This document shows, piece by piece, positions 150 through 17,299 of a stretch of DNA of 17,558 nucleotides; positions within the stretch are counted from its first letter, which is position 1, and each line of letters opens with the position of its first letter. The stretch is from assembly GCA_964247135.1 (NCBI GenBank), contig CAXTTL010000091.1, forward strand, positions 1 through 17,558, in the 5' to 3' direction. The notes under the pieces were generated by a model. The model was given only the letters and a program-made list of their open reading frames with translations, did not search any database and had not been told where the DNA came from. A program made the translations under genes and the position numbers. The DNA comes from an uncultured Deinococcales bacterium (GTDB lineage: Bacteria > Deinococcota > Deinococci > Deinococcales > JAAFIG01).

Positions 150-1556
150 ATGACAGCCACACTGACGACAATGGAAATCATCAATCCCGCTACTTTCGAC
201 GTGATCGGCAGCGTGCCAATCTCGAGCGCCCAGGATGTCGAAAAGGCGTTGAACGCCGCGCAGGACGGCAAAAAAGTTTGGGCGGCAACCCCGATGTGGA
301 AACGCCGCGAGATTCTCAGCCGTTACCTTGATCTGCTGACCGCACAAAAGCTCGAGGTGGCACACACGCTCTGTCTCGAGACGGGCAAACCGCTCGAGCA
401 GGCGATAGATGAGGTTTCTGGTGGGATTCGGATGTTCCGCGAGTACATCAACCGCGTGATTGGGCTGCACGGCACGACCATTCCGCTCGATTCGCAAGAA
501 GGACTCGAGCGCGATGTCCTCATGACACACCATCAACCGCTCGGGGTGCTGGCGGCGATCTTGCCGTTCAATTTTCCGATAGACACCTTCAGCCACAAGA
601 CCGGCGCGGCGCTGGTGACGGGCAACGCCGTGATCGTCAAACCTGGCGAGGACGCACCGCTCGCGGTCTTGCACGCCGTGCGCCTGATGCACGAGGCGGG
701 TGTGCCCGAGAATGTGATTCAGGTCCTTACAGGCAAGGGTGAGGTCGGCGCGATGATGACCGACACGCCCAAAGTCAACGCGATCAGTTTTACCGGCAGC
801 ACCGCCACGGGCAGCCGCGTGATGGCAAACGGCGCAAAGCACATCTCGCGGGTGTACCTCGAGCTTGGCGGCAATGATCCGTTCATTGTTTTTGAAGATG
901 CCGACATGGATGTCGTCATGGAACACGCGGCGTTTGCTCGAACCTACTGCAACGGGCAGTGCTGCGTTGCCAGCAAGCGCTTTATTGTCCATCAATCCAA
1001 GCGCGAGGAATTTACGGCAAGGTTGCTCGAGTCTTTAAAGTCTTACACGGTCGGCAACCCGTTGCTGACGGGCACAAAAGTTGGACCACTGATTCATGAG
1101 GCAGCCGCCAAACGCGCCGAGGAGCAAATCGCGTTGACCGTCTCGCAGGGGGCAAAGGTGCTTTCGGGCGGCGAACGATACGACCGTAGTTTTATCGCGC
1201 CAACCGTGCTCGAGAATGTCACGCCAGAAATGGACGTTGCCAGGGACATGGAAATCTTTGCCCCTGTCTTCCCGATCATCAGTTTTAAAACAGACCAAGA
1301 AGCCATCTCGATTGCGAACGCCTCGATTTACGGTCTGAACGCTGGTGTGTTCACCAACAACGTCAACCGTGCGATTCAAGCGGGCTACCAGATCGAATCT
1401 GGCACGGTCTGCGTCAATGGCGCGGGTTTGTATCACCCCGATGCCGCCGCGTTTGGCGGTTTCAAACAGAGCGGGCTGGGACGCGAAGGAACGCTGACCG
1501 GACTCGAGGAGATGACGCAAATCAAGAGCATCGTGTTCCGCAACGCCTTGTCATAA
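150..1556 (+). CDS. NAD(P)-dependent aldehyde dehydrogenase
   Basis: PFNFP, KPGE, FTGS, catalytic LELGGNDP and NGQCC, EIFAPV, FGGFKQSGLGREG. RBS AGGAG at 139-143 favours ATG 150 over the ORF-track start at 87, which lies inside the REP. Confidence 0.95.
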   Translation: MTATLTTMEIINPATFDVIGSVPISSAQDVEKALNAAQDGKKVWAATPMWKRREILSRYLDLLTAQKLEVAHTLCLETGKPLEQAIDEVSGGIRMFREYINRVIGLHGTTIPLDSQEGLERDVLMTHHQPLGVLAAILPFNFPIDTFSHKTGAALVTGNAVIVKPGEDAPLAVLHAVRLMHEAGVPENVIQVLTGKGEVGAMMTDTPKVNAISFTGSTATGSRVMANGAKHISRVYLELGGNDPFIVFEDADMDVVMEHAAFARTYCNGQCCVASKRFIVHQSKREEFTARLLESLKSYTVGNPLLTGTKVGPLIHEAAAKRAEEQIALTVSQGAKVLSGGERYDRSFIAPTVLENVTPEMDVARDMEIFAPVFPIISFKTDQEAISIANASIYGLNAGVFTNNVNRAIQAGYQIESGTVCVNGAGLYHPDAAAFGGFKQSGLGREGTLTGLEEMTQIKSIVFRNALS

Positions 1557-1796
1557 TTCACCAAACATAACGTTCTCAACCGCACTGAACCCCATCTCGA
1601 GGTTCTCACTCGAGTCTCTTCCTTTACGCCCAAAACGCTCAGCTCGAGCGCCATTTGACCGACCCAATCGGGTGGTCTTGTTGCTATTGCCCAAAACCTG
1701 AATTCCAGGAGGTGAAGCCCAAAAACACGAAATGGCGATTTATCAACCCCAAGCCCTGAACCGCACCAACTCAACCCCAATCCCCGAGGAGGGAAC

Positions 1797-3053
1797 ATGA
1801 AATACAAACACATCATCGTGACTGGCGTACTCGCACTGGCAGCGGGTGCATTCGTCGCCCAGGCGGCTGGCGCAACTGGCAAACTCGAGATTTTTTCCTG
1901 GTGGACGGCTGGCGGCGAATCCGAAGGTCTGGACGCGCTGTTTAAGATCATGAAAGCCCAAAACCCAGACCTCGAGATCATCAATGCGACCGTGGCTGGC
2001 GGTGGCGGCACGAACGCGCAAGCGGTACTGCGAACCCGCGTTTTGGGTGGCAATCCACCAGATTCGTTCCAGGTTCATGGTGGTTCTGATGTCCTTGACA
2101 ATTGGGTTAAAGCCGGCAAGATGGACGACATCTCTGCGGTCTGGATCAAAAACGGCTATGACAAGGTGATCCCAAAAAGCATTCAGGCGCAGTTTATGGC
2201 AGACGGCAAATATTACGGAATGCCAGTCAACATTCACCGCAACAACAATTTGTATTTTAACAATGCGTTGCTCGCCAGCGCTGGCGTCAAAGTACCGACC
2301 ACGCTGGCGCAATTCTGGGTGGCGGCTGAAAAACTCAAAAAAGCTGGCATCACGCCACTGGCGCTCGGCAGCCAAGGCAACTGGGAAATCACCATGCTGC
2401 TCGAAAACATGGTGGTTGAGGTGGGTGGCGCAAAATTTTACAACGACCTGACCACAGGCAAAATCGCCTGGACGGACGCTCGAGTGATCAAAGCCTTGAC
2501 CAACCTCAAGCGCATGTTGGGTTACGTCAACAAAGACCACGCGGCGCTCTCGTGGGATCAGGGCGCTGGGCTGGTTTTGAACGGCAAAGCCGCGTTTAAC
2601 ATCATGGGCGACTGGGCAAAAGGTTATTTTTTATCGAACAAATGGACTGCCGACAAAGAATTCTCGAGTGTTCCCGCCCCTGGCACGAAAGGCACGTTCA
2701 TTGCCACCAACGATGCTTTCGGTCAACCCAAAGGCGCACCAAACCAAGCTGCTGTCAGCGAATGGTTGAAACTGCTGGGCAGCAAAGAGGGACAAGAGCA
2801 ATTCAACATCAGAAAAGGTTCGATCTGCGCCCGCACCGATTGCGATGCCAAACTCTTTGACCCAATCGGTCAACGCACCATGAAAGATTTCTCGAGCAAT
2901 GCCATTGTCGCCACCATCGCACACGGCAGCGCCATGAAAGGTTCTTTTGTCTCGGCACTGCACGATGAGATGGGTATCTTTGCGCTGAATGGTGACGTGC
3001 AAAAAACCGCCGCGAATCTCGAGAAGCAAGCCAAAGACCTCGGTATTCGCTAA
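1797..3053 (+). CDS. Sugar ABC transporter substrate-binding protein (glucose/mannose GtsA / Thermus glucose-binding protein type)
   Basis: Signal peptide; LEIFSWW...INATVAGGGG...RVLGGNPPDSFQVH; PVNIHR; IMGDWAKG; RBS GAGGAGG upstream of ATG. Confidence 0.9.
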   Translation: MKYKHIIVTGVLALAAGAFVAQAAGATGKLEIFSWWTAGGESEGLDALFKIMKAQNPDLEIINATVAGGGGTNAQAVLRTRVLGGNPPDSFQVHGGSDVLDNWVKAGKMDDISAVWIKNGYDKVIPKSIQAQFMADGKYYGMPVNIHRNNNLYFNNALLASAGVKVPTTLAQFWVAAEKLKKAGITPLALGSQGNWEITMLLENMVVEVGGAKFYNDLTTGKIAWTDARVIKALTNLKRMLGYVNKDHAALSWDQGAGLVLNGKAAFNIMGDWAKGYFLSNKWTADKEFSSVPAPGTKGTFIATNDAFGQPKGAPNQAAVSEWLKLLGSKEGQEQFNIRKGSICARTDCDAKLFDPIGQRTMKDFSSNAIVATIAHGSAMKGSFVSALHDEMGIFALNGDVQKTAANLEKQAKDLGIR

Positions 3054-3095
3054 TCATCACACTTCACTGAGCCTGCTTTATCACACAGTTTCTTC

Positions 3096-3128
3096 GCGGT
3101 TGGTTTCTTGAACTGGGAAACCAACCGC
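3096..3128 (+). other. Intercistronic stem-loop after the binding-protein gene (mRNA stabiliser or partial terminator)
   Basis: GCGGTTGGTTTC-N9-GAAACCAACCGC, a perfect 12-bp stem with no U-tract, in the position typical of ABC operons. Confidence 0.65.
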
Positions 3129-3198
3129 AACACCCACAAAATCAGACGTACAAATTTCTCGAGATAAAATCTCTTTGAACCGTTCCCCAAGGACTCCA

Positions 3199-4113
3199 AT
3201 GACCAGTATCAGCCTTCGCAAACGCCGCCCTCCAAACACCGATCAGATCACCGCCGTTTTGATGATTGTGCCGTCTTTGATTGCGATTGCCATTTTTGTG
3301 TACATGTTCATTTTACGCACGGCAGGACTTTCGTTGCTGGCGGTCAATGACTTGTTCGTGATGGCTGGACCAAAGACCTGGTTGGGTTTTCCGCAGGCAG
3401 CCTTTGTCGGCTTGAAAAATTATTTTGACCTTGCCAGCAACGACCGCTTCCGAGCCGATGTCGTCAACATGCTGGTCTTTAGCATTCTGTTCGTTGCCTG
3501 TTCGCTCTCGCTTGGCTTGCTCTTAGCGGTGCTCATCAATGCCAAGGCGAAACTCGAGGATTTGTGGCGCAACATTTTTTTCTTCCCCTTGGCGCTTTCG
3601 TTGGTCGTGACTGGCACAGTTTGGCGTTGGGTCTTCAACAGTGCCAGCACCAGCAGCCTTGGGCTGGACTGGATCACCAACCCAAACACCGCCATTTTGA
3701 CCATCATCATCGCCGCCACCTGGCAGATGAGCGGTTATGTCATGGCACTGTACCTGGCGGGTTTGCGCGGTATTCCAGGCGAATTGCACGAGGCGGCTCG
3801 GGTGGATGGCGCAACCGAGGCGCAAATTTTTTGGCGCATCACCTTTCCCTTGCTTGGTCCGATCACGGTCAGCGCCGCCGTGCTGTTGATTCATATTTCA
3901 CTGAAAATTTTTGACCTGGTGTTTGTCATGACGGGCAACCCTGGCGGACCCGGATTTTCCAGCGACATGCCTGCGCTCTACATGTTTCAGGCAACCTTCA
4001 AGCAAGATTTGTACTCGAGGGGCGCGGCGATAGCGACGTTTATGCTGATCGTGGCGGCGGTCATCATCATTCCGTACCTGGTCGCCAGCAACCGAAAGTC
4101 GGTGGAGGAATGA
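3199..4113 (+). CDS. Sugar ABC transporter permease (MalF/GtsB-like)
   Basis: Multiple hydrophobic segments and the EAA motif ELHEAARVDGA. AAGGA at 3189-3193 precedes ATG 3199. Confidence 0.92.
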   Translation: MTSISLRKRRPPNTDQITAVLMIVPSLIAIAIFVYMFILRTAGLSLLAVNDLFVMAGPKTWLGFPQAAFVGLKNYFDLASNDRFRADVVNMLVFSILFVACSLSLGLLLAVLINAKAKLEDLWRNIFFFPLALSLVVTGTVWRWVFNSASTSSLGLDWITNPNTAILTIIIAATWQMSGYVMALYLAGLRGIPGELHEAARVDGATEAQIFWRITFPLLGPITVSAAVLLIHISLKIFDLVFVMTGNPGGPGFSSDMPALYMFQATFKQDLYSRGAAIATFMLIVAAVIIIPYLVASNRKSVEE

Positions 4114-4973
4114 CCCGTGTGAGCCAACCCATCTCGAGTCCAGCCGTCAAGAAACGCACGCTCTCACCGGCTCGAGTTGGCTTGTACCTGCTGCTTTTGA
4201 CCCTCGCCGCGTTTTACCTGGTTCCGGTTTTTGTGGCGATCAACACCAGCCTCAAAAGCTTCGAGGAAGTCTCAAAAACCAGTGCTTTCGCCTTGGTGCT
4301 TCACCCCAACCTGGCGGCGTACCTCGAGGCGTTCGCGGGGCTAAAACAGGGTTTGCTGAACAGCTTGGCAATGGCAATACCAGCCACGCTCATCAGCAGC
4401 CTGCTGGGTTCAATGAATGGTTATGTGCTCGCCAAGTGGAAGTTCAAATGGGCGGACACCATCTTCCCAGCCGTGCTGTTCGGCATGTTCATCCCGTATC
4501 AATCGATCTTGATTCCACTGTTTCAATTCATGAGCGACATCAAACTGGCGGGCAGCATCTGGGCGTTGGTGCTGGTTCATGTCGTGTACGGCATTCCAAT
4601 CACCAGTTTGATCTTTCGCAATTTTTACGCCACCATTCCAAGCTCCTTGCTCGAGGCTGCCAAGCTCGACGGGGCAAGTTTTTTTGGCATTTACCGCCAC
4701 GTGCTGTTTCCGCTCAGCACCAGTTCGTTCGTGGTCGTGCTGATCTGGCAGTTCACCAACATCTGGAATGACTTTCTGTTCGCCGTGACGCTGACCAGTC
4801 CAGCCACGCAGCCCGTGACCGTGGTTTTGCAAGGTTTGGGCGCGGGACAGATCAGCCATTACGAGGTTCAAATGGCGGGCGCGATTGTCGCCGCCCTGCC
4901 GACCTTGCTGATTTACATCGTGCTGGGAAGGTATTTTGTGCAAGGCGTATTGGCGGGTTCGGTCAAAGGCTAA
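4110..4973 (+). CDS. Sugar ABC transporter permease (MalG/GtsC-like)
   Basis: EAA motif SLLEAAKLDGA, WNDFLF, C-terminal FVQGVLAGSVKG; ATGA overlap with the upstream permease. Confidence 0.93.
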   Translation: MTRVSQPISSPAVKKRTLSPARVGLYLLLLTLAAFYLVPVFVAINTSLKSFEEVSKTSAFALVLHPNLAAYLEAFAGLKQGLLNSLAMAIPATLISSLLGSMNGYVLAKWKFKWADTIFPAVLFGMFIPYQSILIPLFQFMSDIKLAGSIWALVLVHVVYGIPITSLIFRNFYATIPSSLLEAAKLDGASFFGIYRHVLFPLSTSSFVVVLIWQFTNIWNDFLFAVTLTSPATQPVTVVLQGLGAGQISHYEVQMAGAIVAALPTLLIYIVLGRYFVQGVLAGSVKG

Positions 4974-5170
4974 ACCTGCTCGAGATTTATCAATCTTTAA
5001 AACGTGGTGATGGCTTCGTGCTTTGCTCGAACCAGCATGGTGATCCTTTGATGGTCTTTTGATACGGGTTGGGTTTCATTACTTCATACGCTTGCGTAAA
5101 TATTGCGTTCATCACGGAATCCGTATTGGGTTGTATCCTGCCCTGCCGCTGAATCTCGCATCCGCAAACG

Positions 5171-5205
5171 CAAATAAAATATCTCGAGGTTGTCGCCTCG
5201 AGATA
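5171..5205 (-). terminator. Intrinsic terminator of rtcB
   Basis: TATCTCGAGG-N6-CCTCGAGATA 10-bp stem (5180-5205), followed on the minus strand by TTTTATTTG, just past the rtcB stop codon. Confidence 0.7.
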
Positions 5206-5212
5206 CCGATTC

Positions 5213-6853
5213 TTAATCTTCTGGAATCTCGCCCGCGTCCGCCATTTTGACGATTTTCGGGTCAAATCGTGCGATCACATGCACCAGTTCGGTTTGCGCC
5301 GCCATGACTTTATCGATGTCTTTGTACGCCAGTGGGTTCTCGTCAATGCCCGCCGAGAGCAGCGTCACGCCCGCTTCCTCGAGTTTTGGTCGGATCATCT
5401 TCCAGGTGAATTGCTCTTTGGCTTTGGTGCGGCTCATGGCGCGTCCCGCACCGTGGCTGGCACTCTCGAGACTGTCTTTGTTGCCTTTGCCGCGCACCAC
5501 AAAACCTGGGGTTGCCATGCTGCCTGGAATCATGCCGAGCACGCCCATGCCGGCTGGGGTTGCGCCTTTGCGGTGAACGATGACCTCCTGTCCAAAGTGG
5601 CTTTCTTTCCAAGCGAAATTGTGATGGTTTTCGACGCCCGCCAGCACTTTCGCGCCGATGGCTTTGATCACTTTTTTGTGAATCAACGCGTGGTTGGCGC
5701 TGGCATACAAACCCATCAAGTTCATGGCAGCCCAGTATTCTTGTCCAGCTTCAGAATCCATGCCCAGCCATGCCAGGTGTTTTAATTCTGCTGGCAGTTC
5801 GCGGTGAAAATCCATTGCCAAGTCCGAGTAATGCTTTGCCACCGTCGCGCCAGAGCCTCGAGAACCACTGTGCGACAACAGCGCCAAGTATTCTCCTGGC
5901 GAAAGGTTCATCTCACTCTTGTCAAGCGTCACAATGCCAAATTCGACGAAGTGATTGCCGCTGCCCGAAGTGCCAAGCTGCGCTCGGGCTTTATCAAACA
6001 GCTTTTCGGTGACTCGAGTCACCGTCCAATCCTCATCGAGCACGTCATGCTCGAGTGGTCGCTGCCAGCTTGCGCCTGTGCCGAATTTGGTCTCGGTTTC
6101 GATGGCACGTTTCAAGTCTTCAAAACGACGTTTGAAGGCGGTGGTGACGGGCATATCCAGAATCGAGAGTTTCAGGCGGCAAGCAATATCGTCCCCACCC
6201 GCGTAAGGAATCACGGCGTTTTCGGTGGCGAGCACACCGCCAATTGGCAAGCCGTACCCTTGGTGCGCGTCTGGCATCAACGCGCCAGCGAACGCCACAG
6301 GCAGCATCGCGGCGTTGTGCATTTGCTTGATCGCGCCGTCCTCCAGCCCAGTTCCAAAAATCTTGTACGGCGCAGCCTCCAAGCGTCGCTCGAGTGGTTT
6401 TGGTTTGCTTAATTCACTTGCCAAAACCCCAAAGTGCTCATCCTCGAGGTGTGCTTCTGGTTGCTCGAGAATCGCACGGATTTGAGCTTCGATTTTTGCT
6501 GGTTCAAATCGGTCGGGATGGTTTTTGATGGCAGCAAGCACCACGCCGACCAGTCGTCCCTCTGGAATTCCGAGTGCCAAAATGTCTTTTGCTTTCATGA
6601 TGTCAGTTCCTGTGTTTTCTTTAACCTCGAGCAGCTTATCGATGCCTTCTTTGCGATCCCACTGAATGCCGGCTTCGGTTTTGAAATACCAAATTCGGTG
6701 CCACGGAATTTCCAAACCTGGTTTGAAACTGGTCAGCCTGATTTCTTTCATGCCGTTAAAACGGGTCTGGTAACCAATCACAAATTCGGACGGGTCAAAG
6801 CGCGAATCGTAACAGATTTGATTGTAAATGATTTCACTGGAACGAAGTTTCAT
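5213..6853 (-). CDS. rtcB: RtcB 3'-phosphate/cyclic-phosphate RNA ligase with N-terminal MJ1316 (DUF504) domain
   Basis: RtcB motifs MPDAHQGYGLPIGG, DIAC, GSGNHFVE, HSGSRG, NHHN, HRKGAT, SHGAGR, DENPLAYKDI. The N-terminal ~75 aa has IGY..RF.GMKE...IPWHRI.YF.....WDR, characteristic of MJ1316. RBS GTGAGGGA supports ATG at 6853. Confidence 0.92.
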   Translation of the reverse strand: MKLRSSEIIYNQICYDSRFDPSEFVIGYQTRFNGMKEIRLTSFKPGLEIPWHRIWYFKTEAGIQWDRKEGIDKLLEVKENTGTDIMKAKDILALGIPEGRLVGVVLAAIKNHPDRFEPAKIEAQIRAILEQPEAHLEDEHFGVLASELSKPKPLERRLEAAPYKIFGTGLEDGAIKQMHNAAMLPVAFAGALMPDAHQGYGLPIGGVLATENAVIPYAGGDDIACRLKLSILDMPVTTAFKRRFEDLKRAIETETKFGTGASWQRPLEHDVLDEDWTVTRVTEKLFDKARAQLGTSGSGNHFVEFGIVTLDKSEMNLSPGEYLALLSHSGSRGSGATVAKHYSDLAMDFHRELPAELKHLAWLGMDSEAGQEYWAAMNLMGLYASANHALIHKKVIKAIGAKVLAGVENHHNFAWKESHFGQEVIVHRKGATPAGMGVLGMIPGSMATPGFVVRGKGNKDSLESASHGAGRAMSRTKAKEQFTWKMIRPKLEEAGVTLLSAGIDENPLAYKDIDKVMAAQTELVHVIARFDPKIVKMADAGEIPED

Positions 6854-6897
6854 AATTTCCCTCACCAACTCGAAGATGCTCGAGTTTCAACCTTGTC

Positions 6898-6903
6898 AGT
6901 GTA
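6898..6903 (-). promoter_or_regulatory. Putative -10 element (TACACT) for rtcB
   Basis: TACACT on the minus strand about 45 nt upstream of the ATG. The leader contains the hairpin AACTCGA-N6-TCGAGTT (6867-6886) next to the RBS. Confidence 0.4.
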
Positions 6904-6977
6904 AGGGCTTAAAGCTCGAGTCGCCTGATGGAAACGGCGTGGTTTGACTAAGCGTTATGGCTCAAATCAAAACCACG

Positions 6978-7013
6978 CAAATCAAAACCCCGACGTTCCG
7001 CAACGTCGGGGTT
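6978..7013 (-). terminator. Intrinsic terminator
   Basis: AACCCCGACGTT-CCGC-AACGTCGGGGTT (6986-7013); on the minus strand the stem runs into GGGGTTTTGATTTG. Confidence 0.8.
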
Positions 7014-7069
7014 GAAACGAAAGCTCGAGGGGGTCGAGCGGTACTGCGTCGAGCGGTGCTTCTCTGCTG
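6978..7069 (-). ncRNA. Candidate ~90-nt small RNA with its own -10 box and terminator
   Basis: -10-like CATACT at 7080-7075, two ACCGCTCGAC repeats and a CCCCCTC tract, ending in a perfect 12-bp hairpin plus U-rich tail. No credible ORF. Confidence 0.4.
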
Positions 7070-7171
7070 AAGTCAGTATGGCGTTTAATTCTGAGAGGGG
7101 CACTGGAATTTTTATGAGAAGAATCGATCTCTCGAGCCGTTTTCTTCATATTGAATTCATTTTAGAGGGTT

Positions 7172-8964: not shown

Positions 8965-8990
8965 ATCTCGAGAAATGAAATTTATGCCTT

Positions 8991-9051: not shown

Positions 9052-10281
9052 ATGGAATTTCAACAAACAACATTGTCAAACGGATTGACCGTCATCGGCG
9101 AACACAACCCTCAAGCCAAAAGCGTGGCTGTTGGGTATTTCGTCAAAACAGGCTCGAGGGACGAAAGCCCAGAAATTTCGGGCGTCAGTCATTTTCTCGA
9201 GCACATGATGTTCAAAGGTTCAGACACGATTTCGGGCGATGAAATCAACACCGAATTCGATGAGGTCGGCGCAAAATACAATGCCTTCACCAACGAAGAA
9301 CTGACCGCCTATCACGGTGCGGTGCTGCCCGAATTTCAACCACGACTGGTAAAACTCCTGACGACCATGATGCGCCCAGCGTTGCGAAACACGGACTTTG
9401 ATGTCGAGAAAAAAGTGATTCTCGAGGAAATTGAGATGTACAAAGACCGCCCAAATTTCATGGTCTTTGACGAATTGCGCCCAACCTACTTTGGTCAGCA
9501 TCCACTCGGCAACAGCGTGCTCGGCACGAGCGGAAGCATTCTGGCGCTGTCTCGAGATGCCATGTTCGAGTATTTTTCGCGCCGTTACGCGCCGAACAAT
9601 TTGGTGCTCGGCGTGGCGGGAAATTACGACTGGGATGCACTTTTAACCCAAGTTGGCGAGATGACCTCGAGTTGGACGCCAGCCACCACCGGACGCAATC
9701 AACCCACCTTTGCCCCGACCAGCACGATCAAAACCATCAACTCGAGCAAAATCAACCGCGCCCATATTGCGTTAATGACCCCAGGATTCTCGAGCTTGGA
9801 CCCACAACGTTACGCGGCTGGCGTGCTCGGCTGGATTTTGGGCGACGGTGAAAACTCGAGGTTGTACTGGGCGTTGGTGGACAACGGTTTGTGCGACGAA
9901 GCCAGTTTTGACCACACCAGCGAGGACGGACTCGGGCATTTTGGCGGCTACATCAGCACCGATCCAGAACGCGCCAAAGAAGCCTTGGCAACCTTCAAAA
10001 ACGTGCTCGAGGATGCCCAAAAAAACGGTGTGACGCTGGAGGAACTCGAGCGAGCCAAACGCAAAGTCGCCGTGTCTATTGTACTCCGCGCCGAAACGCC
10101 TTACTCGAGGTTGTTTTCCATGAGCATGGAATACCTCGACACCCTTGAGTACAAACCGCTCGCTGAGGTCGTCAAAACCGTGCAAAGCATCACGCTCGAG
10201 GAAGTCAACGCGATTCTCAAAACCCGCCCGTTTGATGCCATGACGGTGGTTGGTTTGATGCCAGACGGCTTTGCATTGTGA
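9052..10281 (+). CDS. M16B zinc peptidase, catalytic subunit
   Basis: GVSHFLEHMMFKG (HxxEH), YNAFT, EKKVILEEI. AGGAG precedes ATG 9052; the ORF-track start at 8989 is at the REP. Confidence 0.93.
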   Translation: MEFQQTTLSNGLTVIGEHNPQAKSVAVGYFVKTGSRDESPEISGVSHFLEHMMFKGSDTISGDEINTEFDEVGAKYNAFTNEELTAYHGAVLPEFQPRLVKLLTTMMRPALRNTDFDVEKKVILEEIEMYKDRPNFMVFDELRPTYFGQHPLGNSVLGTSGSILALSRDAMFEYFSRRYAPNNLVLGVAGNYDWDALLTQVGEMTSSWTPATTGRNQPTFAPTSTIKTINSSKINRAHIALMTPGFSSLDPQRYAAGVLGWILGDGENSRLYWALVDNGLCDEASFDHTSEDGLGHFGGYISTDPERAKEALATFKNVLEDAQKNGVTLEELERAKRKVAVSIVLRAETPYSRLFSMSMEYLDTLEYKPLAEVVKTVQSITLEEVNAILKTRPFDAMTVVGLMPDGFAL

Positions 10282-10316
10282 ACTCAAAGCAAATGCTGAT
10301 AACATGAAACCCACCC

Positions 10317-10883
10317 ATGATTGACCGTCTGAAACTCCCGTTTTCGTTCGACCCAATGCGTTTAAAACACGACCTCGAGAATCTCGAGCACTTGGGTTGG
10401 ACGGATCATTTTGTCAAACAGAATTACGAGGGTTCTTGGAGCGTGATTCCGCTCCGAGGCACGGCGGGCGCGACGCATCCGATCATGATGATTTACAGCG
10501 ATCCAAACGCCAAGGACTTTGAAGACACGCCTTTTTTGGAATCCAGCCCGTATTTTCAGGAAGTGCTGCAAGGATTTCAATGTCCGCTCGAGGCGGTTCG
10601 CCTGATGAAACTCAGTGCCGGTTCGATCATCAAAGAGCACACCGATTATGACCTGGCGTTTGAAGACGGTCACGCGCGGTTGCACATTCCAGTCGCTACC
10701 AACTCCGCAGTCGATTTTCAGTTAAATCATCGGCGCGTGGTCATGCTCGAGGGTGAATGCTGGTATTTAAAACTTAGCGAACCGCATTCGGTTGCCAACC
10801 GTGGTGAGGCAGACCGTGTGCATTTGGTGATCGACGCATTGGTGAATCCTTGGCTCGAGGAAATCTTTCACAACAACCTCTAA
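10317..10883 (+). CDS. Aspartyl/asparaginyl beta-hydroxylase-like Fe(II)/2-oxoglutarate dioxygenase
   Basis: RLMKL..GSIIKEHTD (HxD), RLHIP, GECW, PHSVAN...DRVHLVID. Confidence 0.85.
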   Translation: MIDRLKLPFSFDPMRLKHDLENLEHLGWTDHFVKQNYEGSWSVIPLRGTAGATHPIMMIYSDPNAKDFEDTPFLESSPYFQEVLQGFQCPLEAVRLMKLSAGSIIKEHTDYDLAFEDGHARLHIPVATNSAVDFQLNHRRVVMLEGECWYLKLSEPHSVANRGEADRVHLVIDALVNPWLEEIFHNNL

Positions 10884-10884
10884 A

Positions 10885-11337
10885 TTATAGTTCCCGCAGC
10901 ATGTATGTTGGTTGCGGGTTTTCAGCTTCAAAGCCGCTCGAGCGATAAAATTCTACGGCTTCTTGGTTGTCCGCCAGCACCCAAACCACATCAACATCAT
11001 TTTCGCGCATCCAAGTTTCCATTTGGTTCAAAAGCGCTCGACCAATACCTTGCCTGCGCCAATCTTGATGCACACCAATTTCGTACAACACAAGCTCCTG
11101 CCCTGTATTCGAGCGCAGTAAAATGACGTTGCATTGTAAAAACCCAAGAATGGCATCACCTTCAAATGCAACCCAACAAAGCACGTCGGGATGCTCGAGA
11201 AAACGTTTTGCGTTTTCGGGCTTTAGCGGTGGTTTTGGTGCGCCGCGATCATCAAGGTCAAAGTCGGCATCGTGGGTTGCCAGAAACTCGAGGATTGCTT
11301 CATCACCTGCGCCGAGTTGTTTGATTGAAACTGCCAT
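10885..11337 (-). CDS. GNAT-family N-acetyltransferase
   Basis: Motif A VHQDWRRQGIGRALL and N..AVEFYRSSGF; RBS GAGGTG before ATG 11337. Confidence 0.9.
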   Translation of the reverse strand: MAVSIKQLGAGDEAILEFLATHDADFDLDDRGAPKPPLKPENAKRFLEHPDVLCWVAFEGDAILGFLQCNVILLRSNTGQELVLYEIGVHQDWRRQGIGRALLNQMETWMRENDVDVVWVLADNQEAVEFYRSSGFEAENPQPTYMLREL

Positions 11338-11406
11338 CGGGTTCACCTCTGAATAGCATTGTCGCTCGAGATTCTATTTGGAAATGTTGAGGTTTAAACT
11401 TGAGGA

Positions 11407-11907
11407 ATGATTTTCCCACTCGAGCAATGGATTCGTGTTTCACAAGAAATGAACTTGCGCTTTGAGAAACTTCGAGGGATTGCCGTGTGCGAAGCCAATC
11501 CCACGCCATTTCACCAAATGGAAATTGATCGGATTCGGGCGAGTGTTCGCGTTACCAATCCTAACGTTTCTGGTATTCATGTGGCGAATGTTTTGTTCGC
11601 TTTTGAGGATGATACGTTCGTCCAACCCGATATTGCTTTTTTAGCCGAGTTACCAATTCTTCTCGAGACTTATGAAGCTTTAAGCGTCGTTCCATCCGCC
11701 GTGATTGAAGTAACATCACTGGGTTTCGAGCGCAAAGACCTCGAGTTCAAACCACGGTTTTATCTTGAAAAAGGCGTAAAGGACATTCTGATTTTTGATC
11801 CGCGCACGAAAGTCATTTTGTATCACCGGCAAGAATGGACTGAACCCAAACAATTCTCGAGTCCAGCAAGATTCGAGTTGGAATGCGGTTGCGAAGTCAC
11901 AATTTGA
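11407..11907 (+). CDS. Uma2-family (DUF820) PD-(D/E)xK endonuclease-like protein
   Basis: P.P.HQ, QPDIAF, PSAVIEVTS...KD...K..FY...GVKDILIFDP. Confidence 0.85.
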   Translation: MIFPLEQWIRVSQEMNLRFEKLRGIAVCEANPTPFHQMEIDRIRASVRVTNPNVSGIHVANVLFAFEDDTFVQPDIAFLAELPILLETYEALSVVPSAVIEVTSLGFERKDLEFKPRFYLEKGVKDILIFDPRTKVILYHRQEWTEPKQFSSPARFELECGCEVTI

Positions 11908-11969
11908 AGCTCGAGATTTTTGTTTGTCAAGGTCTGGTTATGTTCACGTTACGGCGGTAACATAGCATC

Positions 11970-14900
11970 ATGTCCGACTCGAGCAACCCGTTACGACCTG
12001 GGGACGCCAACCCCGCCGACCTCCACCACAACCTCGAGGCTTCACTCAAAACCCCGAAACGCTTCGCACACTTGCATCAGCACACACAATATTCGCTTCT
12101 GGACGGTGCAGCGCGAATCAAGGATTTATTGAAATGGGTTTTGAAAACCTCCCCAGAAAACCCGACCGTCGCCATGACCGATCACGGCAACATGCACGGT
12201 GCGGTGCAATTTTTCAAGTATGCCAACGAGTACGGCGTCAAACCGATCATCGGTTATGAGGCGTATGTTTCGGCAGGCTCGAGGTTTGACCGCAAAATGG
12301 AAAAGGGTGTCGATGGTGGGTATTACCATCTGACGCTGCTGGCAAAGAATTTTGAGGGCTATCAGAACCTCTGCAAGTTATCCTCCATCGCGTATCTCGA
12401 GGGTTATTATTACAAGCCCCGCATCGACCGTGAGGTGCTGGCGCTCCATCACAAAGGCGTGATCGCCATGAGCGGTTGCCTGGGTGCGGAAGTCCCAAAT
12501 TTGATCTTGCAAGATCGGCTCGAGGAAGCCGAAGAGCGTTTAAAGTGGTATCAAGCGCTTTTTAAAGAAGATTATTTCGTCGAGATTCAAAACCACGGTT
12601 TGCCAGAGCAGCAAAAAGTCAACCCCGTTTTGAAAGCTTGGGCGATCAAGCACGGCATCGGCATGGTTGCCACCAACGACGGGCATTACGTCAAACACGA
12701 AGACGCTTATGCCCACGAGGTTTTGCTCGCCATTCAGACCAAAGCGCTGATGAGCGAAGAAAAACGCTTTAAATTTTCCTGCGATGATTTTTACGTCAAA
12801 ACCCAACTCGAGATGGAAAAAATGCTGCCCAGTTCTGACTGGGGCGATGAGATTTACGACAACAGCATCAACATTGCCGACCAATGCAACCTCGAGCTTC
12901 CGATTGGCAACAAGCGCGTTTACCAAATGCCAGCGCTTCCAATTCCCGAAGGTCGTTCGATGGCGGAAGAGTTGCGGGTGCAAGTCTTTGAGGGTTCTCA
13001 AAAACGTTACCCCAAAGATTTGACCGATGCCTTGTACCGCCGTTATGTGCAAGTCAGCCTCGAGAAACTTGATATTGAGCGCCAAACTGCCCTGTTAAAG
13101 CGTATTCCAAACCTGAACCCCGAAACCGCGAGCCTCGAAACGCTGATTCTGGCGATGGCGTTTATGGGAACACTCTGGGTTGAACAATTTAAAGACGAAA
13201 AATACACGCAATACCCAGGGCTGGACTGGCTCGAGGAATTTGAGCCTGATGCTTGGGGGCAAGGTTTGGTGGTCTTGCGCCGCGCCGAGTACGAATCGGG
13301 CGTGATTATTCGCATGGGTTTCCCAGATTACTTTTTGATCGTCGCGGACTTTATCAACTGGGCGAAAGACCAGAACATTCGCGTCGGACCTGGGCGCGGT
13401 TCGGGTGCGGGTTCGCTGGTGGCGTATGCGCTGCGGATCACCAACTTGGACCCGCTGTTTTACGGTTTGCTGTTCGAGCGTTTTTTAAACCCCGACCGCG
13501 TTTCGATGCCCGATTTTGACGTGGATTTTTCGGACGCGCGGCGCAACGAAGTGATCGAGTACGTGCGCAACAAATACGGTGACGACAAGGTTGCCATGAT
13601 CGCCACCTTCGGAACGATGGCATCTCGCGCTGTGTTTAAAGACGTGGCTCGAGTTCTGGAATTGCCCTTTGCCGAAGCGGACAAACTCTCCAAACTCGTG
13701 CCCGTCAAATTCGGTAAAAGCCTTTCGCTCGAGGATGCCGCCAAAACCGTGCCTGACATTGCCGCGATGCTCGAGGAGAACGAAAAAACCAAAGAGGTTT
13801 TTGGCATTGCGCAGTCTTTGGAGGGTTTGACCCGTCACGCCAGCGTTCACGCCTCGGGGGTCATCATTGGACGCGAACGCCTGGACAACCTTGTGCCCTT
13901 AATGCGCGACTCGAGCGGCGAGGGTGTGGTCTGTCAACTCGACATGAGCAGCGTCGAAGATATTGGTCTGATCAAAATGGATTTTCTTGGACTTCGCACA
14001 TTGTCGTTTCTCGAGGAAGCCATGCGTATCGTCAAAGAATCCAAAGGCGTTTCGCTCGAGCCTGATGATTTCCCGCTCGACGATTCCAAAACCTACGATC
14101 TGATCTCGAGGGGTGAGACCAAGGGCGTGTTTCAACTCGAGGGTGGCGGGATTACCGAGGCGGCAAAACGCCTGAAACCCAGACGGATTCAGGATGTTAA
14201 CGCGCTCTCGGCGTTGTATCGCCCGGGTCCGATGGACAACATTCCGGCGTACATCGAACGGCATCACGGGCGCGAAGAGGTGCGTTACGACCAGGGCGAG
14301 TTTGATCTTCCGACTTGCGAACCGTTTTTGAAGCCGATTCTCGAGGAAACATACGGTATTCCCGTCTATCAAGAGCAAATCATGCAGATTGCGAGTGCGG
14401 TTGCGGGGTATTCACTGGGTCAATCTGACCTCTTGAGACGCGCAATGGGAAAAAAGAAGTTAGAGGAAATGAATAAAGAGCGTATTAAATTTGAAGAAGG
14501 CGCTCTTAGTGTTAATAAAATTCCTAAAAAAGAGTCAAATCGCTTGTTTGATATCCTAGAAAAATTTGCCAATTACGGATTTAATAAATCTCATTCTGCT
14601 GCATACGCCTTTATTTCATTCCAAACCGCTTATATCAAAGCCCATTATCCTGTTGAATTTATGGCGGCGCTGCTGACCGTCGAACGAAAAGACAGCGATA
14701 AAGTTGCAGAATATATTAACGATGCCAGACAACTCAAACTCGAGTCTGGCAACAAAATGCAGGTCTTGCCACCAGACATTAACCTTTGCTCGAGCGACTT
14801 TAAGGTGGTTGGCGAAAAGATTTTGTTCGGACTTTTTGCCGTTAAAGGCTTGGGCGAGGAATCGGTGCTGGCGATTCTCGAGGAACGTCAGAAAAACGGT

Positions 14901-15914
14901 GCGTTTAAGGGCTTGGCAAATTTTTGCTCGAGGTTGCAGCATGTTGGTTTGACCCGTCGTTGGGTGGAAAACCTGGTCAAAGCTGGCGCGTTTGATGCCT
15001 TCGGCGTTCGGCAATCCTTGCTCGAGTCGGTCGAAGATGCGCTCGATTACGCGGTGGGTCAGGCGCAAATGGCAAATCAGGGCATGGATGCGCTGTTTGG
15101 CATGGCGACCATTGCGCCAGAACCCAAGTTGCGGGTGATTCCGCCGGCTCAAACCGAAGATGAGTCTCGAGCGCGAGCGATTCAACAATTGCAATTCGAG
15201 AAAGAAGCAGTGGGTTTGTACATTTCTGGGCATCCGCTCGAGCATTACCCTGGAATGCTCGAGGCTGCCAGCACCAAAGCCCCAAACCTCGAGTATTGGT
15301 TTCACAATTCGGGTACGATTGCGGGCTACCGTGGGCGCAAGAAGGCGGTGCTGGCAGGCATGATTTCGGGCGTGCAACGCAAACCCACCAAATCGGGCGG
15401 CATGATGGCACGAGTCAATCTGACCGACAATGTGGGTTCTCTCGAGCTTGTGGCGTTCTCTCGGGCTTACGAGAAAATAAATACCAAACTCGTGGAAGAC
15501 ATGCCTGCGCTGGTGATCGTCGAGGTTGAACCAGACGGCGAGGGTATTCGGGTCAGCATCGAAGATGTCTTGACTTTCGATGAGGCTCGAGCCATGCCGA
15601 AAATCTTGTCGCTCGAACTGGATTTGGAAGAAGTTGGGGATGGTCAACTCGAGCATTTGGATGAAATTTTGCAAAATCAAGAAGGTGTTCCGAACACGCC
15701 AATTCGCGTTCGGGTTCGTTCTGAAGCAGGTTATGAGGTCTGGGAACTCGAGGTCAAAGCCACGCCCAGCACCCCAGAAACCCTGAAACTCGAGTGTCCG
15801 TGGTTACAACCCAAACTGGGCATCAACGGCGATGCAGTGCTGGCAAAGTACGAACGTGCGCCCAAGCCTTGGGAGAAAAAAGCGCAGGGTGGCGAAGCTC
15901 GAGTCTTGAATTGA
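11970..15914 (+). CDS. dnaE: DNA polymerase III alpha subunit (DnaE1 type, intein-free)
   Basis: PHP motifs HLHQHTQYSLLDG, TDHG, TNDGH; GPGRGSGAGS; SMPDFDVDF; KMDFLGL; YGFNKSH; C-terminal OB fold. Confidence 0.98.
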   Translation: MSDSSNPLRPGDANPADLHHNLEASLKTPKRFAHLHQHTQYSLLDGAARIKDLLKWVLKTSPENPTVAMTDHGNMHGAVQFFKYANEYGVKPIIGYEAYVSAGSRFDRKMEKGVDGGYYHLTLLAKNFEGYQNLCKLSSIAYLEGYYYKPRIDREVLALHHKGVIAMSGCLGAEVPNLILQDRLEEAEERLKWYQALFKEDYFVEIQNHGLPEQQKVNPVLKAWAIKHGIGMVATNDGHYVKHEDAYAHEVLLAIQTKALMSEEKRFKFSCDDFYVKTQLEMEKMLPSSDWGDEIYDNSINIADQCNLELPIGNKRVYQMPALPIPEGRSMAEELRVQVFEGSQKRYPKDLTDALYRRYVQVSLEKLDIERQTALLKRIPNLNPETASLETLILAMAFMGTLWVEQFKDEKYTQYPGLDWLEEFEPDAWGQGLVVLRRAEYESGVIIRMGFPDYFLIVADFINWAKDQNIRVGPGRGSGAGSLVAYALRITNLDPLFYGLLFERFLNPDRVSMPDFDVDFSDARRNEVIEYVRNKYGDDKVAMIATFGTMASRAVFKDVARVLELPFAEADKLSKLVPVKFGKSLSLEDAAKTVPDIAAMLEENEKTKEVFGIAQSLEGLTRHASVHASGVIIGRERLDNLVPLMRDSSGEGVVCQLDMSSVEDIGLIKMDFLGLRTLSFLEEAMRIVKESKGVSLEPDDFPLDDSKTYDLISRGETKGVFQLEGGGITEAAKRLKPRRIQDVNALSALYRPGPMDNIPAYIERHHGREEVRYDQGEFDLPTCEPFLKPILEETYGIPVYQEQIMQIASAVAGYSLGQSDLLRRAMGKKKLEEMNKERIKFEEGALSVNKIPKKESNRLFDILEKFANYGFNKSHSAAYAFISFQTAYIKAHYPVEFMAALLTVERKDSDKVAEYINDARQLKLESGNKMQVLPPDINLCSSDFKVVGEKILFGLFAVKGLGEESVLAILEERQKNGAFKGLANFCSRLQHVGLTRRWVENLVKAGAFDAFGVRQSLLESVEDALDYAVGQAQMANQGMDALFGMATIAPEPKLRVIPPAQTEDESRARAIQQLQFEKEAVGLYISGHPLEHYPGMLEAASTKAPNLEYWFHNSGTIAGYRGRKKAVLAGMISGVQRKPTKSGGMMARVNLTDNVGSLELVAFSRAYEKINTKLVEDMPALVIVEVEPDGEGIRVSIEDVLTFDEARAMPKILSLELDLEEVGDGQLEHLDEILQNQEGVPNTPIRVRVRSEAGYEVWELEVKATPSTPETLKLECPWLQPKLGINGDAVLAKYERAPKPWEKKAQGGEARVLN

Positions 15915-15949
15915 AACAAATAGCAATCAGCGATTAGCAAATAACAAAA
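15915..15949. repeat. Degenerate 7-bp tandem repeat (5 units)
   Basis: AACAAAT AGCAATC AGCGATT AGCAAAT AACAAAA directly after the dnaE stop. Confidence 0.45.
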
Positions 15950-15981
15950 CCCCTCCGAGCCACACGTGTATAGCGCTTAAA

Positions 15982-16023
15982 TTCCCTTCTCCCGCTGGCG
16001 GGAGAAGGGTTAGGGATGAGGGT
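15982..16023 (-). repeat. CCCTCA-CCC-N-CCCTTCTCCC...GGGAGAAGGG palindromic repeat element; may act as terminator between convergent genes
   Basis: The minus strand reads ACCCTCATCCCTAACCCTTCTCCCGCCAGCGGGAGAAGGGAA, with a 12-bp stem CCCTTCTCCCGC/GCGGGAGAAGGG. Confidence 0.65.
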
Positions 16024-16028
16024 GGGCT

Positions 16029-17030
16029 TTATTGATACACCGCAATCGAAAACGCAATCCTGCGCTTCGGGTGAATCAAAACCTTGCCCTTCCACGCCAT
16101 CCCGACGCTCGAACCACCATCGAGCGCGATGGCTTCTTTGGCGTTTAACGCTTTCATGATTTTGGAAAGTTGCCATAAATTGAGTTTCTCGCGGGTGCTG
16201 ACAAAAAAGAGTTTGCGTTCGCTCGAGATGCCCACCGCCGAACGTGAGGCGCGTCCCCAAACGGCGGCGTCTTTGAAACCTTCGCCTTTGGGAGCAACTT
16301 GCACCAGACCTCGGCGCAGAATGTAGGGTCCGCTCGAGATCAGGGTTTCAAATCCCGACCAGTCGAGCCTCGAGGCGCGGGAGAGTGATTCTGGTTTGAC
16401 CCAAAGGTAGGCGCGGTTGTCGGGCGTGATGCCGAGGGCGGTGCGGAGTTTCCCCCTGGCAACGTAACGTCCGTTGATGACCAGATCGCCGGCTGGGGCA
16501 AAGGTGGCGGTATTAAAGTATCCGCCGTTAATCATGGCGACGGCTTTGGAACCCGCAACCATCGCGTCAAAATTGGCGCCTTTATTGTGTTTGGGCAGGA
16601 TTGCTTTGACCTGAACGCTTGGGTTCTCGAGGTTGACGCGCACGATTTTAACGTGAAATCCAAACACGGTTTTTTCCTCAAAGGTGACACTGTTTTGAAT
16701 GCCCAGTTGAATTTGGCGCGGTTTGGCAACTTTGGGCTTAACCCGAATTTGTTTGAGCTTGGAAGGGTTGCTGATGGGTGTAAACGTTGGGGCTGCCTCG
16801 GGAATCGGCTCGGTGGGTGTGCCTGGGATCACTGGTTCGGGGGCTAAAGGTAGGCTCGGTGTGGCTGGTGCGGGTTGAATTGATGCGGGTTGAATTGATG
16901 CGGGTTGAATTGGCTCTGGTTGAATGGGTGCAACTGGCACATGGGGTGGCAAAACAGGGGCATCATTTTGGGGTTCCCCAAAACTCGAGCCACAAAATGA
17001 GATGAGTAGCACAACCAAAATTCGTTTCAA
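16029..17030 (-). CDS. Secreted phosphodiester glycosidase (NAGPA/DUF2233) family protein with Pro-rich linker
   Basis: Signal-like LKRILVVLLISF after RBS GGAGG (TTG at 17030); AMINGGYF, SSGPYIL, RSAVG, AIALDGGSS. Confidence 0.85.
   Translation of the reverse strand: MKRILVVLLISFCGSSFGEPQNDAPVLPPHVPVAPIQPEPIQPASIQPASIQPAPATPSLPLAPEPVIPGTPTEPIPEAAPTFTPISNPSKLKQIRVKPKVAKPRQIQLGIQNSVTFEEKTVFGFHVKIVRVNLENPSVQVKAILPKHNKGANFDAMVAGSKAVAMINGGYFNTATFAPAGDLVINGRYVARGKLRTALGITPDNRAYLWVKPESLSRASRLDWSGFETLISSGPYILRRGLVQVAPKGEGFKDAAVWGRASRSAVGISSERKLFFVSTREKLNLWQLSKIMKALNAKEAIALDGGSSVGMAWKGKVLIHPKRRIAFSIAVYQ
16869..16928. repeat. 15-bp coding tandem repeat (IQP[A/E][S/P] x4)
   Basis: TGCGGGTTGAATTGA twice exactly, plus two degenerate copies. 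Confidence 0.85.
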
Positions 17031-17195
17031 ATGCGATCCTCCAGGTGATGTTTGTATTGTACGGGTTTTGCAGGTTTTTAAACATCGCAATTGAACAGAG
17101 GCTGTGTTGCTCGAGGTTTTCGTCAATTTTTTCATTCTTTACTCAAACCTGGCTTTTCACGGCTTTTTGGTTTCATCGCTTGCACACCTCCAGAA

Positions 17196-17204
17196 TGGTA
17201 CACT
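17196..17204 (+). promoter_or_regulatory. Putative extended -10 (TGnTACACT) for mreB
   Basis: TGGTACACT about 100 nt upstream of the mreB start. Confidence 0.45.
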
Positions 17205-17299
17205 CGAGCCTTGAGACCCGCCATTTCCAGTTTTTTGGATTGTGTGGCGTAAAAAATCGAGCAAAACAGCCACGTCATGTACGCGGCTCGAGGAGTTAA

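Follow-up and report, generated by a model that had tools for sequence, protein, structure and literature searches.

What could fill a bacterial genome with copies of a single restriction target? The question is raised by a 17,558-nt contig of an uncultured Deinococcales bacterium (CAXTTL010000091.1 of assembly GCA_964247135.1; the whole contig is here called the window), in which the palindrome CTCGAG, the 6-bp word targeted by XhoI and PaeR7I, recurs from position 221 to position 17292. Genomes are normally poor in type II restriction targets, and one related genus (g7, below) is poor in CTCGAG, whereas in this genome it is the most frequent hexamer. A sequence-only reading of the window had counted ~128 copies by hand where ~4 were expected, and had proposed a highly iterated palindrome (HIP) like the cyanobacterial HIP1 (GCGATCGC), found outside cyanobacteria. 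The exact count is 128, and 200 dinucleotide-preserving shuffles gave a mean of 3.67 (SD 2.01, maximum 12) with none reaching 128, so both the hand count and the expectation were accurate. With phases assigned from Pfam-supported open reading frames (ORFs), the set is composed as follows:

221..17292, no strand: CTCGAG set, 128 copies; 73 in frame as Leu-Glu, 27 as xxC-TCG-AGx, 14 as xCT-CGA-Gxx and 14 non-coding

Across the assembly to which the window belongs as contig C91 (G000; 5.09 Mb in 386 contigs, 52.7% GC, 84% complete), CTCGAG occurs 33,925 times, i.e. once per 150 bp or 6,660 times per Mb, and occupies 4.0% of all bases. The next most frequent hexamers are overlaps of CTCGAG itself, followed by the first unrelated one with 6,081 copies. 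The excess is 27-fold over the mean hexamer count and about 25-fold over the base-composition expectation, in fair agreement with the ~30-fold first estimated. Every one of the 297 contigs of at least 5 kb carries 2.6-10.5 sites per kb. Among 4,160 genes called with a simple self-trained caller, which reproduced the Pfam-supported ORFs of the window, 4,030 (97%) have at least one site; for genes of at least 900 nt, 9 of 1,958 are site-free, and those 9 are GC-poor.

It had also been argued that codon bias for Leu-Glu could not account for the sites, since they fall in all three codon phases and in non-coding DNA. The examples given were correctly placed: 4014, 9153 and 12278 lie in the C-TCG-AG phase, 2479 and 8249 in the CT-CGA-G phase, and 4979, 8967 and 11910 are 5, 2 and 2 nt past stop codons. 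The window genes hold 114 sites, compared with 15.8 ± 3.6 (maximum 24) in 200 shuffles that preserve protein and codon usage. Over all genes, 27,316 sites were observed, compared with 3,822 ± 57 under synonymous-codon permutation (7.2-fold) and 1,620 under codon-order shuffling (16.9-fold). Each phase exceeds the synonymous shuffle: CTC-GAG with 17,137 sites versus 2,996 expected (5.7-fold), C-TCG-AG with 6,189 versus 550 (11-fold) and CT-CGA-G with 3,990 versus 275 (14.5-fold). CTCGAG is the sole top outlier from this null among the 4,096 hexamers, with an observed/expected ratio (O/E) of 7.18. Outside called genes the density is 7.0 per kb, compared with 6.6 within them, and the 14 non-coding sites of the window, in about 1,368 nt, amount to 10 per kb. 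The excess therefore survives a codon-preserving null, the test on which the sequence-only reading had staked its case, and Leu-Glu codon bias is insufficient to explain it.

A dispersed repeat element, a cloning linker or an assembly artefact would explain sheer copy number alone. The flanks of CTCGAG show a weak symmetric consensus (AAG-CTCGAG-CTT) and are near-random beyond ±3 nt, so CTCGAG is not a repeat element of the kind whose copies share flanks, such as repetitive extragenic palindromes (REP) or miniature inverted-repeat transposable elements (MITE); the symmetry itself fits a reading at the DNA level. The sites are spread through nearly all genes, and all 19 genomes of the family, which were assembled independently and represent 5 genera with DnaE about 75% identical, contain 12,028-35,442 copies each (about 4.3-6.8 per kb in whole-genome pattern counts), with positions conserved between them. 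Such an origin, and with it confinement to one contig, is already refuted and keeps next to no probability. The hyper-abundance of CTCGAG is confirmed as real, strong and family-wide.

Conservation of sites and their imprint on proteins

A congener, G005, provided 296 kb that aligned to this genome at 86.3% DNA identity. In the three codon phases the motif was unchanged in 82.1% (n = 1,232), 66.8% (n = 253) and 78.5% (n = 404) of cases, compared with 46% for other hexamers, and non-coding copies were unchanged in 71.9% (n = 242), compared with 42.9%. The same codons are held more tightly inside the motif than outside it: CTC was unchanged in 88.1% of cases before GAG versus 51.6% elsewhere, GAG in 87.7% after CTC versus 62.3% elsewhere, TCG in 83.9% within the motif versus 66.3% in the control, and CGA in 74.4% versus 53.3%. 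In an alignment of the window across six genomes, the motif was kept in 79% of coding comparisons versus 48% (406 comparisons) and in 77% of non-coding comparisons versus 42% (31 comparisons). Existing sites change 2-4 times slower than matched codons, and the surroundings of conserved sites are 85.7% identical, compared with 87.2% around random conserved hexamers.

One gene of the window served as a test case for both conservation and amino-acid replacement:

11970..15914, + strand: dnaE, with 33 CTCGAG, 23 of them in frame as Leu-Glu

Eighteen of the 23 in-frame sites are common to G005, and 9-16 of the 23 are common to three genomes from other genera (chance about 0.3-0.4). Seven of 22 are common to both G253 and G196 (another family), where chance would give at most 0.5. 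Some site positions date to the ancestor of the family, and CTCGAG sites are maintained at the DNA level.

The proteome is bent towards Leu-Glu, its most over-represented dipeptide (22,165 pairs, O/E 2.36, an excess of about 12,800 pairs), compared with O/E 1.01 for Glu-Leu and 1.62 for Ser-Ser. CTCGAG spells 77.3% of the Leu-Glu pairs, where 11% is expected from overall codon usage and 4.9% from usage outside the motif. Family DnaE contains 29-31 Leu-Glu pairs, and outgroup DnaE 11-24. For 19 of the 23 in-frame dnaE sites the commonest outgroup dipeptide differs from Leu-Glu (LD, LA, VE or IE), and Leu-Glu fills 24 of the 230 outgroup alignment cells at those sites, with two outgroup ORFs possibly mis-framed. 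Replacements in DnaE have created sites. These data bear on whether the sites are a by-product of a preference for the Leu-Glu dipeptide or the CUC-GAG codon pair. Although 63% of genic sites are in-frame Leu-Glu, as such a preference would give, the out-of-frame phases are enriched 11-15-fold, non-coding DNA is as dense in sites as coding DNA and conserves them (72% versus 43%), Glu-Leu is not enriched, and outgroup proteins generally lack Leu-Glu at these positions. A by-product of protein sequence or translation is already refuted, and we leave it hardly any weight. A DNA-level force can over-represent one dipeptide 2.4-fold across a proteome, which concerns codon models and composition-based binning; at the bench, the abundance of CTCGAG matters for XhoI digestion of DNA from these genomes.

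Spread among relatives, spacing and gene ends

The wider sample comprised 251 genomes of the phylum, all of one order, for which raw counts were taken:

g7, 92 genomes: 26-1,010 CTCGAG per genome, at or below expectation
g9, 30 genomes: 1,455-2,803 CTCGAG per genome
g13, g18, g19 and some f2 genera, several genomes: 2-3.6 CTCGAG per kb
G253 (family f3, genus g36): 24,536 CTCGAG in 3.5 Mb, 7.0 per kb
G197 (genus g36, congener of G253): 683 CTCGAG

Synonymous shuffles of samples of at most 20 kb placed individual relatives as follows:

G196: 56 observed versus 13.7 shuffled; moderate form, same kind
G090: 48 observed versus 12.4 shuffled; moderate form, same kind
G030: 50 observed versus 11.3 shuffled; moderate form, same kind
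G220: 44 observed versus 5.3 shuffled; moderate form, same kind
G022 (g9): 16 observed versus 20 shuffled; no excess
G020 (g7): 0 observed versus 2.4 shuffled; reversed (avoidance)

The first reading had added, with reserve, that some other Deinococcota are rich in CTCGAG. This holds for a weaker form, seen in several genera at 2-3.6 per kb and about fourfold over the codon null, but the full strength is not reached there. In the moderate-form genomes non-coding CTCGAG is present too. The DnaE of G253 is 59-63% identical to that of this genome and 73% identical to that of G197, which places the full-strength trait truly outside the family as well. At the 26 in-frame DnaE sites of G253, G197 has Leu-Glu at 10 and CTCGAG at 2. 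The assignment of the window to Deinococcota is itself supported, since its DnaE matches structure 2HPI, presumably from Thermus aquaticus, over the full length (1,410 bits; other DnaE structures at most 757) and its RecJ carries the Pfam 'RecJ C-terminal domain, Deinococci'.

Gaps between sites average 148 nt with a coefficient of variation of 0.96. Close pairs are too few (433 gaps of at most 12 nt versus 2,607 expected) and long gaps too many (16 above 1.5 kb versus 1.4 expected), and the sole periodicity at short range is 3 nt. With another site 6-12 nt away, CTCGAG is the spelling of 36% of Leu-Glu pairs; the share is 63% at 13-20 nt and 83-85% beyond 50 nt. This mutual repulsion of genic sites, within about 20 nt, acts at the DNA level. 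The long site-free stretches are islands of 27-40% GC with defence or surface genes, including those for STAND (signal transduction ATPases with numerous domains) NTPases, a reverse transcriptase-protease fusion, an O-antigen ligase and patatin. G005 DNA that is shared with this genome has 6.57 sites per kb, compared with 4.58 in unshared DNA, and the difference persists at matched GC. Recently acquired low-GC DNA is poorer in sites.

Density is level along genes and climbs to 16 per kb in the 15 nt past stop codons. A site starts at offset +2 after the stop at 199 of 4,103 gene ends, compared with 30-75 at neighbouring offsets, and this arrangement often reads TAA-AA-CTCGAG. Non-coding DNA, opposite to the repulsion within genes, has an excess of close pairs at a distance of 15-24 nt. 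Among 1,113 close non-coding pairs, 212 have a stem longer by 2 bp or more, where chance would give about 70; a T-run accompanies 120 of the 212, and CTCGAG..CTCGAG..TTTT is found at 169 of 4,117 gene ends. The window contains these examples:

8967..8972, + strand: CTCGAG 2 nt past the stop of the first M16 peptidase gene; no offset is commoner genome-wide
11910..11915, + strand: CTCGAG 2 nt past the stop of the Uma2-family gene
4979..4984, + strand: non-coding CTCGAG 5 nt past the stop of the second ABC permease gene
5172..5207, - strand: terminator-like hairpin just downstream of the rtcB stop, with CTCGAG at 5183 and 5197
1596..1614, + strand: close CTCGAG pair downstream of the aldehyde dehydrogenase gene, at a spacing of 13 nt; 6-bp stem, a weaker example

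The rtcB hairpin has a 12-bp stem (GGTATCTCGAGG / CCTCGAGATATT) with the two CTCGAG as its core, followed by a T-rich run, and the minus-strand RNA of 5160-5212 folds at -20.5 kcal/mol. As judged from their stems and T-runs, site pairs appear to have been recruited as terminator-like structures, at which transcription is predicted to terminate.

What could keep the sites

The sequence-only reading had offered either an orphan CTCGAG methylase coupled to repair or a nucleoid, recombination or DNA-uptake protein. Six Pfam methyltransferase families gave 12 loci in this 84%-complete genome. None of the 9 loci tested for distribution is family-wide; the remaining loci are two MmeI-type enzymes and one fragment at a contig end. 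The distribution of the tested loci was:

C189 methyltransferase: close orthologues in 0 of 18 family genomes
C14 methyltransferase: close orthologues in 3 of 18 family genomes
C36 methyltransferase: close orthologues in 2-3 of 18 family genomes
C207 methyltransferase: close orthologues in 4 of 18 family genomes
C178 methyltransferase: close orthologues in 3 of 18 family genomes
C320, C4b, C112 and C169 methyltransferases: each in 1 of 5 genus representatives

In addition, G011, a family genome in a single contig, has no close homologue of the five methyltransferase genes tested on it. Because the genome is 84% complete and enzyme specificities were not assigned, a conserved cognate methyltransferase is best described as 'not found' rather than 'absent'. 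The MmeI-family type IIL restriction-modification genes lie at G000:C192:4855-7644 and G000:C21:25623-28157; the solved MmeI structure aligns with one of them over its whole length (951 bits), and the other is diverged, without matches to the target-recognition and C-terminal domains. MmeI-type enzymes have asymmetric targets. PF07669 matched these two enzymes and a 1,499-aa methylase-helicase fusion that is present in 1 of 5 genus representatives.

The genome gave no match to the Vsr endonuclease (PF03852) and none to the XhoI-family nuclease (PF04555), a profile that was silent in all 14 control genomes too. Dcm/Vsr very-short-patch repair raises CCWGG in E. coli, and is an example of a repair process able to enrich the target word of a methylase. 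Its effect is modest and T-for-C variants are drained, whereas CTCGAG is enriched 7-27-fold and its T-for-C variants are not depleted. The depleted one-off variants are synonymous (CTGGAG, O/E 0.25; CTCGAA, 0.47; CTTGAG, 0.57), and the non-synonymous T-for-C variants are not depleted (TTCGAG, 1.13; CTCAAG, 1.11). Variant depletion therefore tracks synonymy and not C-to-T chemistry, which argues against Vsr-like patch repair. Thus, the suggested check for single-mismatch variants found only the synonymous Leu-Glu spellings depleted, and the methylase coupled to repair was not borne out.

To our knowledge, the function of HIPs has been open for about thirty years and they have been studied only in cyanobacteria. 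Like HIP1, CTCGAG is a short GC-rich palindrome that is hyper-abundant in all frames and in intergenic DNA, with sites conserved beyond background, a strength that varies and a trait that is lost among related lineages. The order-of-magnitude excess, the presence in every phase and the site conservation expected of a HIP1-like palindrome outside cyanobacteria were all found, whereas a conserved cognate methyltransferase was not (9 genes tested). CTCGAG is also a 6-mer in another phylum, compared with an 8-mer for HIP1. HIP1 reaches 300-2,700 copies per Mb, compared with 6,660 for CTCGAG. Alternate HIPs in cyanobacteria, e.g. GGCGCC in Calothrix PCC 7103, accompany a cognate methyltransferase (Elhai 2015, PMC4390886). 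HIP1 is argued to be under selection and to have a structural role, and its distribution to be periodic at 10-90 kb (Xu, Lawrence & Durand 2018, PMC5861425). HIP1 has itself been proposed as an uptake signal (Genome Biology and Evolution (GBE) 2026, PMC13756078), and a 2024 preprint reports HIP1-dependent transformation.

The neisserial DNA uptake sequence (DUS) is enriched in core DNA, stringently conserved and permissively located, forms terminator pairs, and has a spacing of about 1,150 nt (Treangen 2008, PMC2397512). CTCGAG resembles DUS and the uptake signal sequences (USS) of Pasteurellaceae, such as Haemophilus, in being core-enriched and rarer in recently acquired DNA (6.57 versus 4.58 per kb), in being conserved in slightly more divergent, 'permissive' regions (85.7% versus 87.2%), in forming close inverted pairs (rho-independent terminators in DUS/USS, a sequence pattern alone for CTCGAG) and in its compatibility with molecular drive. 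In contrast, DUS/USS are 9-12 nt long, non-palindromic and present about once per kb, whereas CTCGAG is 6 nt long, palindromic and present once per 150 bp. The uptake specificity of DUS/USS is experimental; that of CTCGAG is a prediction, and no receptor such as the ComP minor pilin was identified for it. Since its traits match those of HIPs except for the methyltransferase link and add four DUS signatures, we place CTCGAG with the HIP and uptake-signal kind, as a member of neither named family. A literature search, with REBASE and subscription-only journals outside it, gave no account of CTCGAG as an iterated or over-represented palindrome, and the rest of what it returned was cloning primers and methylation motifs. 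CTCGAG is a methylation motif in hot-spring metagenome-assembled genomes (bioRxiv 10.64898/2026.06.24.734251) and in a haloarchaeon (PMC8112702).

Of the two early proposals, the new evidence agrees better with a nucleoid, recombination or DNA-uptake protein than with an orphan methylase. We tentatively favour the view, plausible though short of probable, that CTCGAG is a genome-wide double-stranded-DNA signal kept by selection or molecular drive and linked to uptake or recombination. Selection or drive on the DNA word itself would create and maintain CTCGAG, as in HIP1 and DUS/USS. A postulated sequence-specific protein would favour DNA bearing the word, the likeliest setting being uptake or recombination of kin DNA in a phylum that has an uptake channel; alleles with a site would spread, and alleles losing it would be replaced. 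The short-range repulsion in genes may reflect hairpin avoidance or the lack of gain from a second nearby site. The ComEC uptake channel was found in 18 of 19 family genomes. More doubtful is the extended proposal that the bare 6-bp palindrome is a kin-DNA watermark for uptake or recombination, with an origin separate from cyanobacterial HIP1 and proteobacterial DUS/USS and without a dedicated methyltransferase. If true, the density of this watermark would be the highest known for such a signal (4% of bases, 97% of genes), and the patchy, graded spread, with G253 beside motif-poor G197, would reflect a single reader gene gained and lost repeatedly.

Several points weigh against an uptake or recombination signal. 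Of 41 genomes of the order, 40 have ComEC, with or without the trait, and this near-universality means that uptake is allowed and not specifically supported. The g9 genomes, which we take to be Thermus, show no CTCGAG excess (16 observed versus 20 expected), and Thermus takes up DNA with high competence and no sequence preference. Six base pairs make a poorly discriminating word, and CTCGAG is about 7-8 times denser than DUS. Compensatory turnover is weak (67 observed versus 49.6 ± 6.6 within 60 nt) and was rejected as a signal, since rate heterogeneity could give the same slight excess. In a gain/loss set polarised across six congeners, which holds few events, is underpowered and is biased by conditioning on majority states, losses were seen in 31 of 366 lineages versus 2,219 of 23,561 for other majority-defined hexamers, with 0 single-step gains in 62 lineages and no clear gain/loss bias. 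Conservation alone fits site-restoring repair as well as it fits selection, and a non-orthologous or missed methyltransferase is possible given 84% completeness. The family is uncultured; uptake and binding are predictions here, and the reader protein is a postulate.

Among the alternatives, the methylation-linked model of Elhai would have a CTCGAG methyltransferase mark the sites and a methylation-dependent repair, replication or epigenetic process create or preserve them. It draws on the cognate enzymes of alternate cyanobacterial HIPs (PMC4390886), on the methylation of CTCGAG in hot-spring genomes and a haloarchaeon, and on the many methyltransferase genes in family genomes, and in a genome just 84% complete the specificity could be supplied by non-orthologous enzymes. 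However, none of the 9 tested methyltransferases is family-wide, two further genes are MmeI-type, G011 is without close homologues of the five genes tested there, Vsr and PF04555 have no match (PF04555 being silent in the controls too), and the variants that T:G repair should drain are not depleted (TTCGAG 1.13, CTCAAG 1.11). We consider this model rather unlikely, if still a serious contender.

An abundant protein that organises the nucleoid or chromosome, as proposed for HIP1, would be expected to have binding sites that are dense, fairly even, maintained and alike in genes and between them, as the CTCGAG sites are; the symmetric flanks would suit a dimeric DNA binder, and selection with a structural role is what has been argued for HIP1 (PMC5861425). 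In contrast, no candidate protein was found, a structural role alone leaves the deficit in accessory DNA at matched GC and the terminator pairs unexplained, and the benefit per site would hardly seem large enough to fix about 34,000 sites together with about 12,800 extra Leu-Glu pairs. We judge it improbable, and think no better of a functionless origin, in which a neutral, context-dependent bias of mutation or repair gives rise to CTCGAG. The latter is consistent with a trait that is genome-wide and in every phase, weaker in recently acquired DNA, as slow amelioration predicts, and variable in strength between lineages, and a repair process restoring whole sites would still fit. It is at odds with sites that change 2-4 times slower than matched codons and persist in position across genera, with their mutual repulsion (36% CTCGAG spelling at 6-12 nt versus 83-85% beyond 50 nt), and with the finding that no single base change is favoured and variant depletion tracks synonymy.

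An independent and stronger HIP case in a second phylum separates general from specific HIP features: conserved positions, scarcity in foreign DNA and terminator-like pairs recur in the CTCGAG family, and the methyltransferase link does not. The one order spans avoidance, no excess, moderate and extreme forms, and the within-genus contrast of G253 and G197 suits gene finding. In the moderate-form genera, genomes resemble cultured-isolate assemblies, being 99-100% complete and in few contigs, so that work on uptake, binding and the methylome should be feasible.

Other words, genes and repeats

GAGCTC was considered as a mirror of the CTCGAG excess, having 0 copies genome-wide where about 860-1,600 are expected and being nearly absent in 16 of 19 family genomes. 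This was rejected because GAGCCC, GGGCTC and GGGCCC are equally purged, together spelling GRGCYC, which we take to be a BanII-type target. Every hexamer containing GGCC is at O/E 0.001-0.004, and the loss of GAGCTC, as part of this GRGCYC and GGCC purge, is ordinary restriction avoidance. CGATCG, GCATGC, CCGCGG, CGTACG, GGATCC, CAGCTG and TCGCGA are at O/E 0.01-0.03. In G253, 30 copies of GAGCTC stand beside the 24,536 of CTCGAG.

A putative endonuclease gene of the Uma2 (DUF820) family lies at 11407-11907 of the window on the plus strand. There are 24 Uma2 matches in this genome and 4-39 per family genome (32 in G019), and among the 14 control genomes they were found only in Synechococcus elongatus, Thermus thermophilus and Deinococcus radiodurans. 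The expansion was set aside as a candidate motif reader, since motif-neutral g9 has 10-16 matches and moderately enriched g13 has 0-3, without clean tracking. Viral contigs with dense CTCGAG were also set aside: the dense ones among 80 listed loci are phages of 64-72% GC in which GAGCTC is as common, so the signature of this family is not theirs. Among the loci listed, L215, L226, L227, L254 and L259 of IMG/VR have 6-10 CTCGAG per kb with equal GAGCTC. The density in these contigs comes from usual Leu-Glu / Glu-Leu codon pairing under high GC, which is another phenomenon.

One site-free island of 35% GC, at G000:C4:51606-53234, encodes a reverse transcriptase fused to a trypsin-like peptidase, which looks like a defence-associated reverse transcriptase. 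In many relatives (e.g. G011:C1, G197:C1 and G012:C102), dnaE frames are 1,645-2,429 aa long and their match to the 1,314-aa DnaE of this genome is split near residues 380, 430 and 874. From these splits, the relatives' dnaE looks as if it holds one to three inteins, with none in the dnaE of this genome. The RtcB RNA ligase, with an N-terminal MJ1316 domain, is encoded at 5213-6868 of the window on the minus strand. Its best named matches are in Tepidisphaerales and Phycisphaerales, and its nearest named kin, at up to 67% identity, belong to Planctomycetota and Verrucomicrobiota rather than Deinococcota. This points to horizontal transfer; the gene was probably transferred or is atypical. An affinity of the genome to the Planctomycetes-Verrucomicrobia-Chlamydiae (PVC) superphylum, drawn from these RtcB matches, was overruled by DnaE and RecJ.

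A 16S gene was not found in the genome by the 515F primer site, and Rfam gave no family match in the window. A dispersed intergenic repeat of 70-85 nt, with no Rfam family match, lies at 15944-16028 of the window and also at 78-140 and 5059-5149. It has an internal hairpin, CCCTTCTCCCGC..GCGGGAGAAGGG, followed by GGGTTAGGGATGAGGGTGGG, and no CTCGAG within it. Dozens of copies, at 80-95% identity, are present in this genome and in all five congeners.

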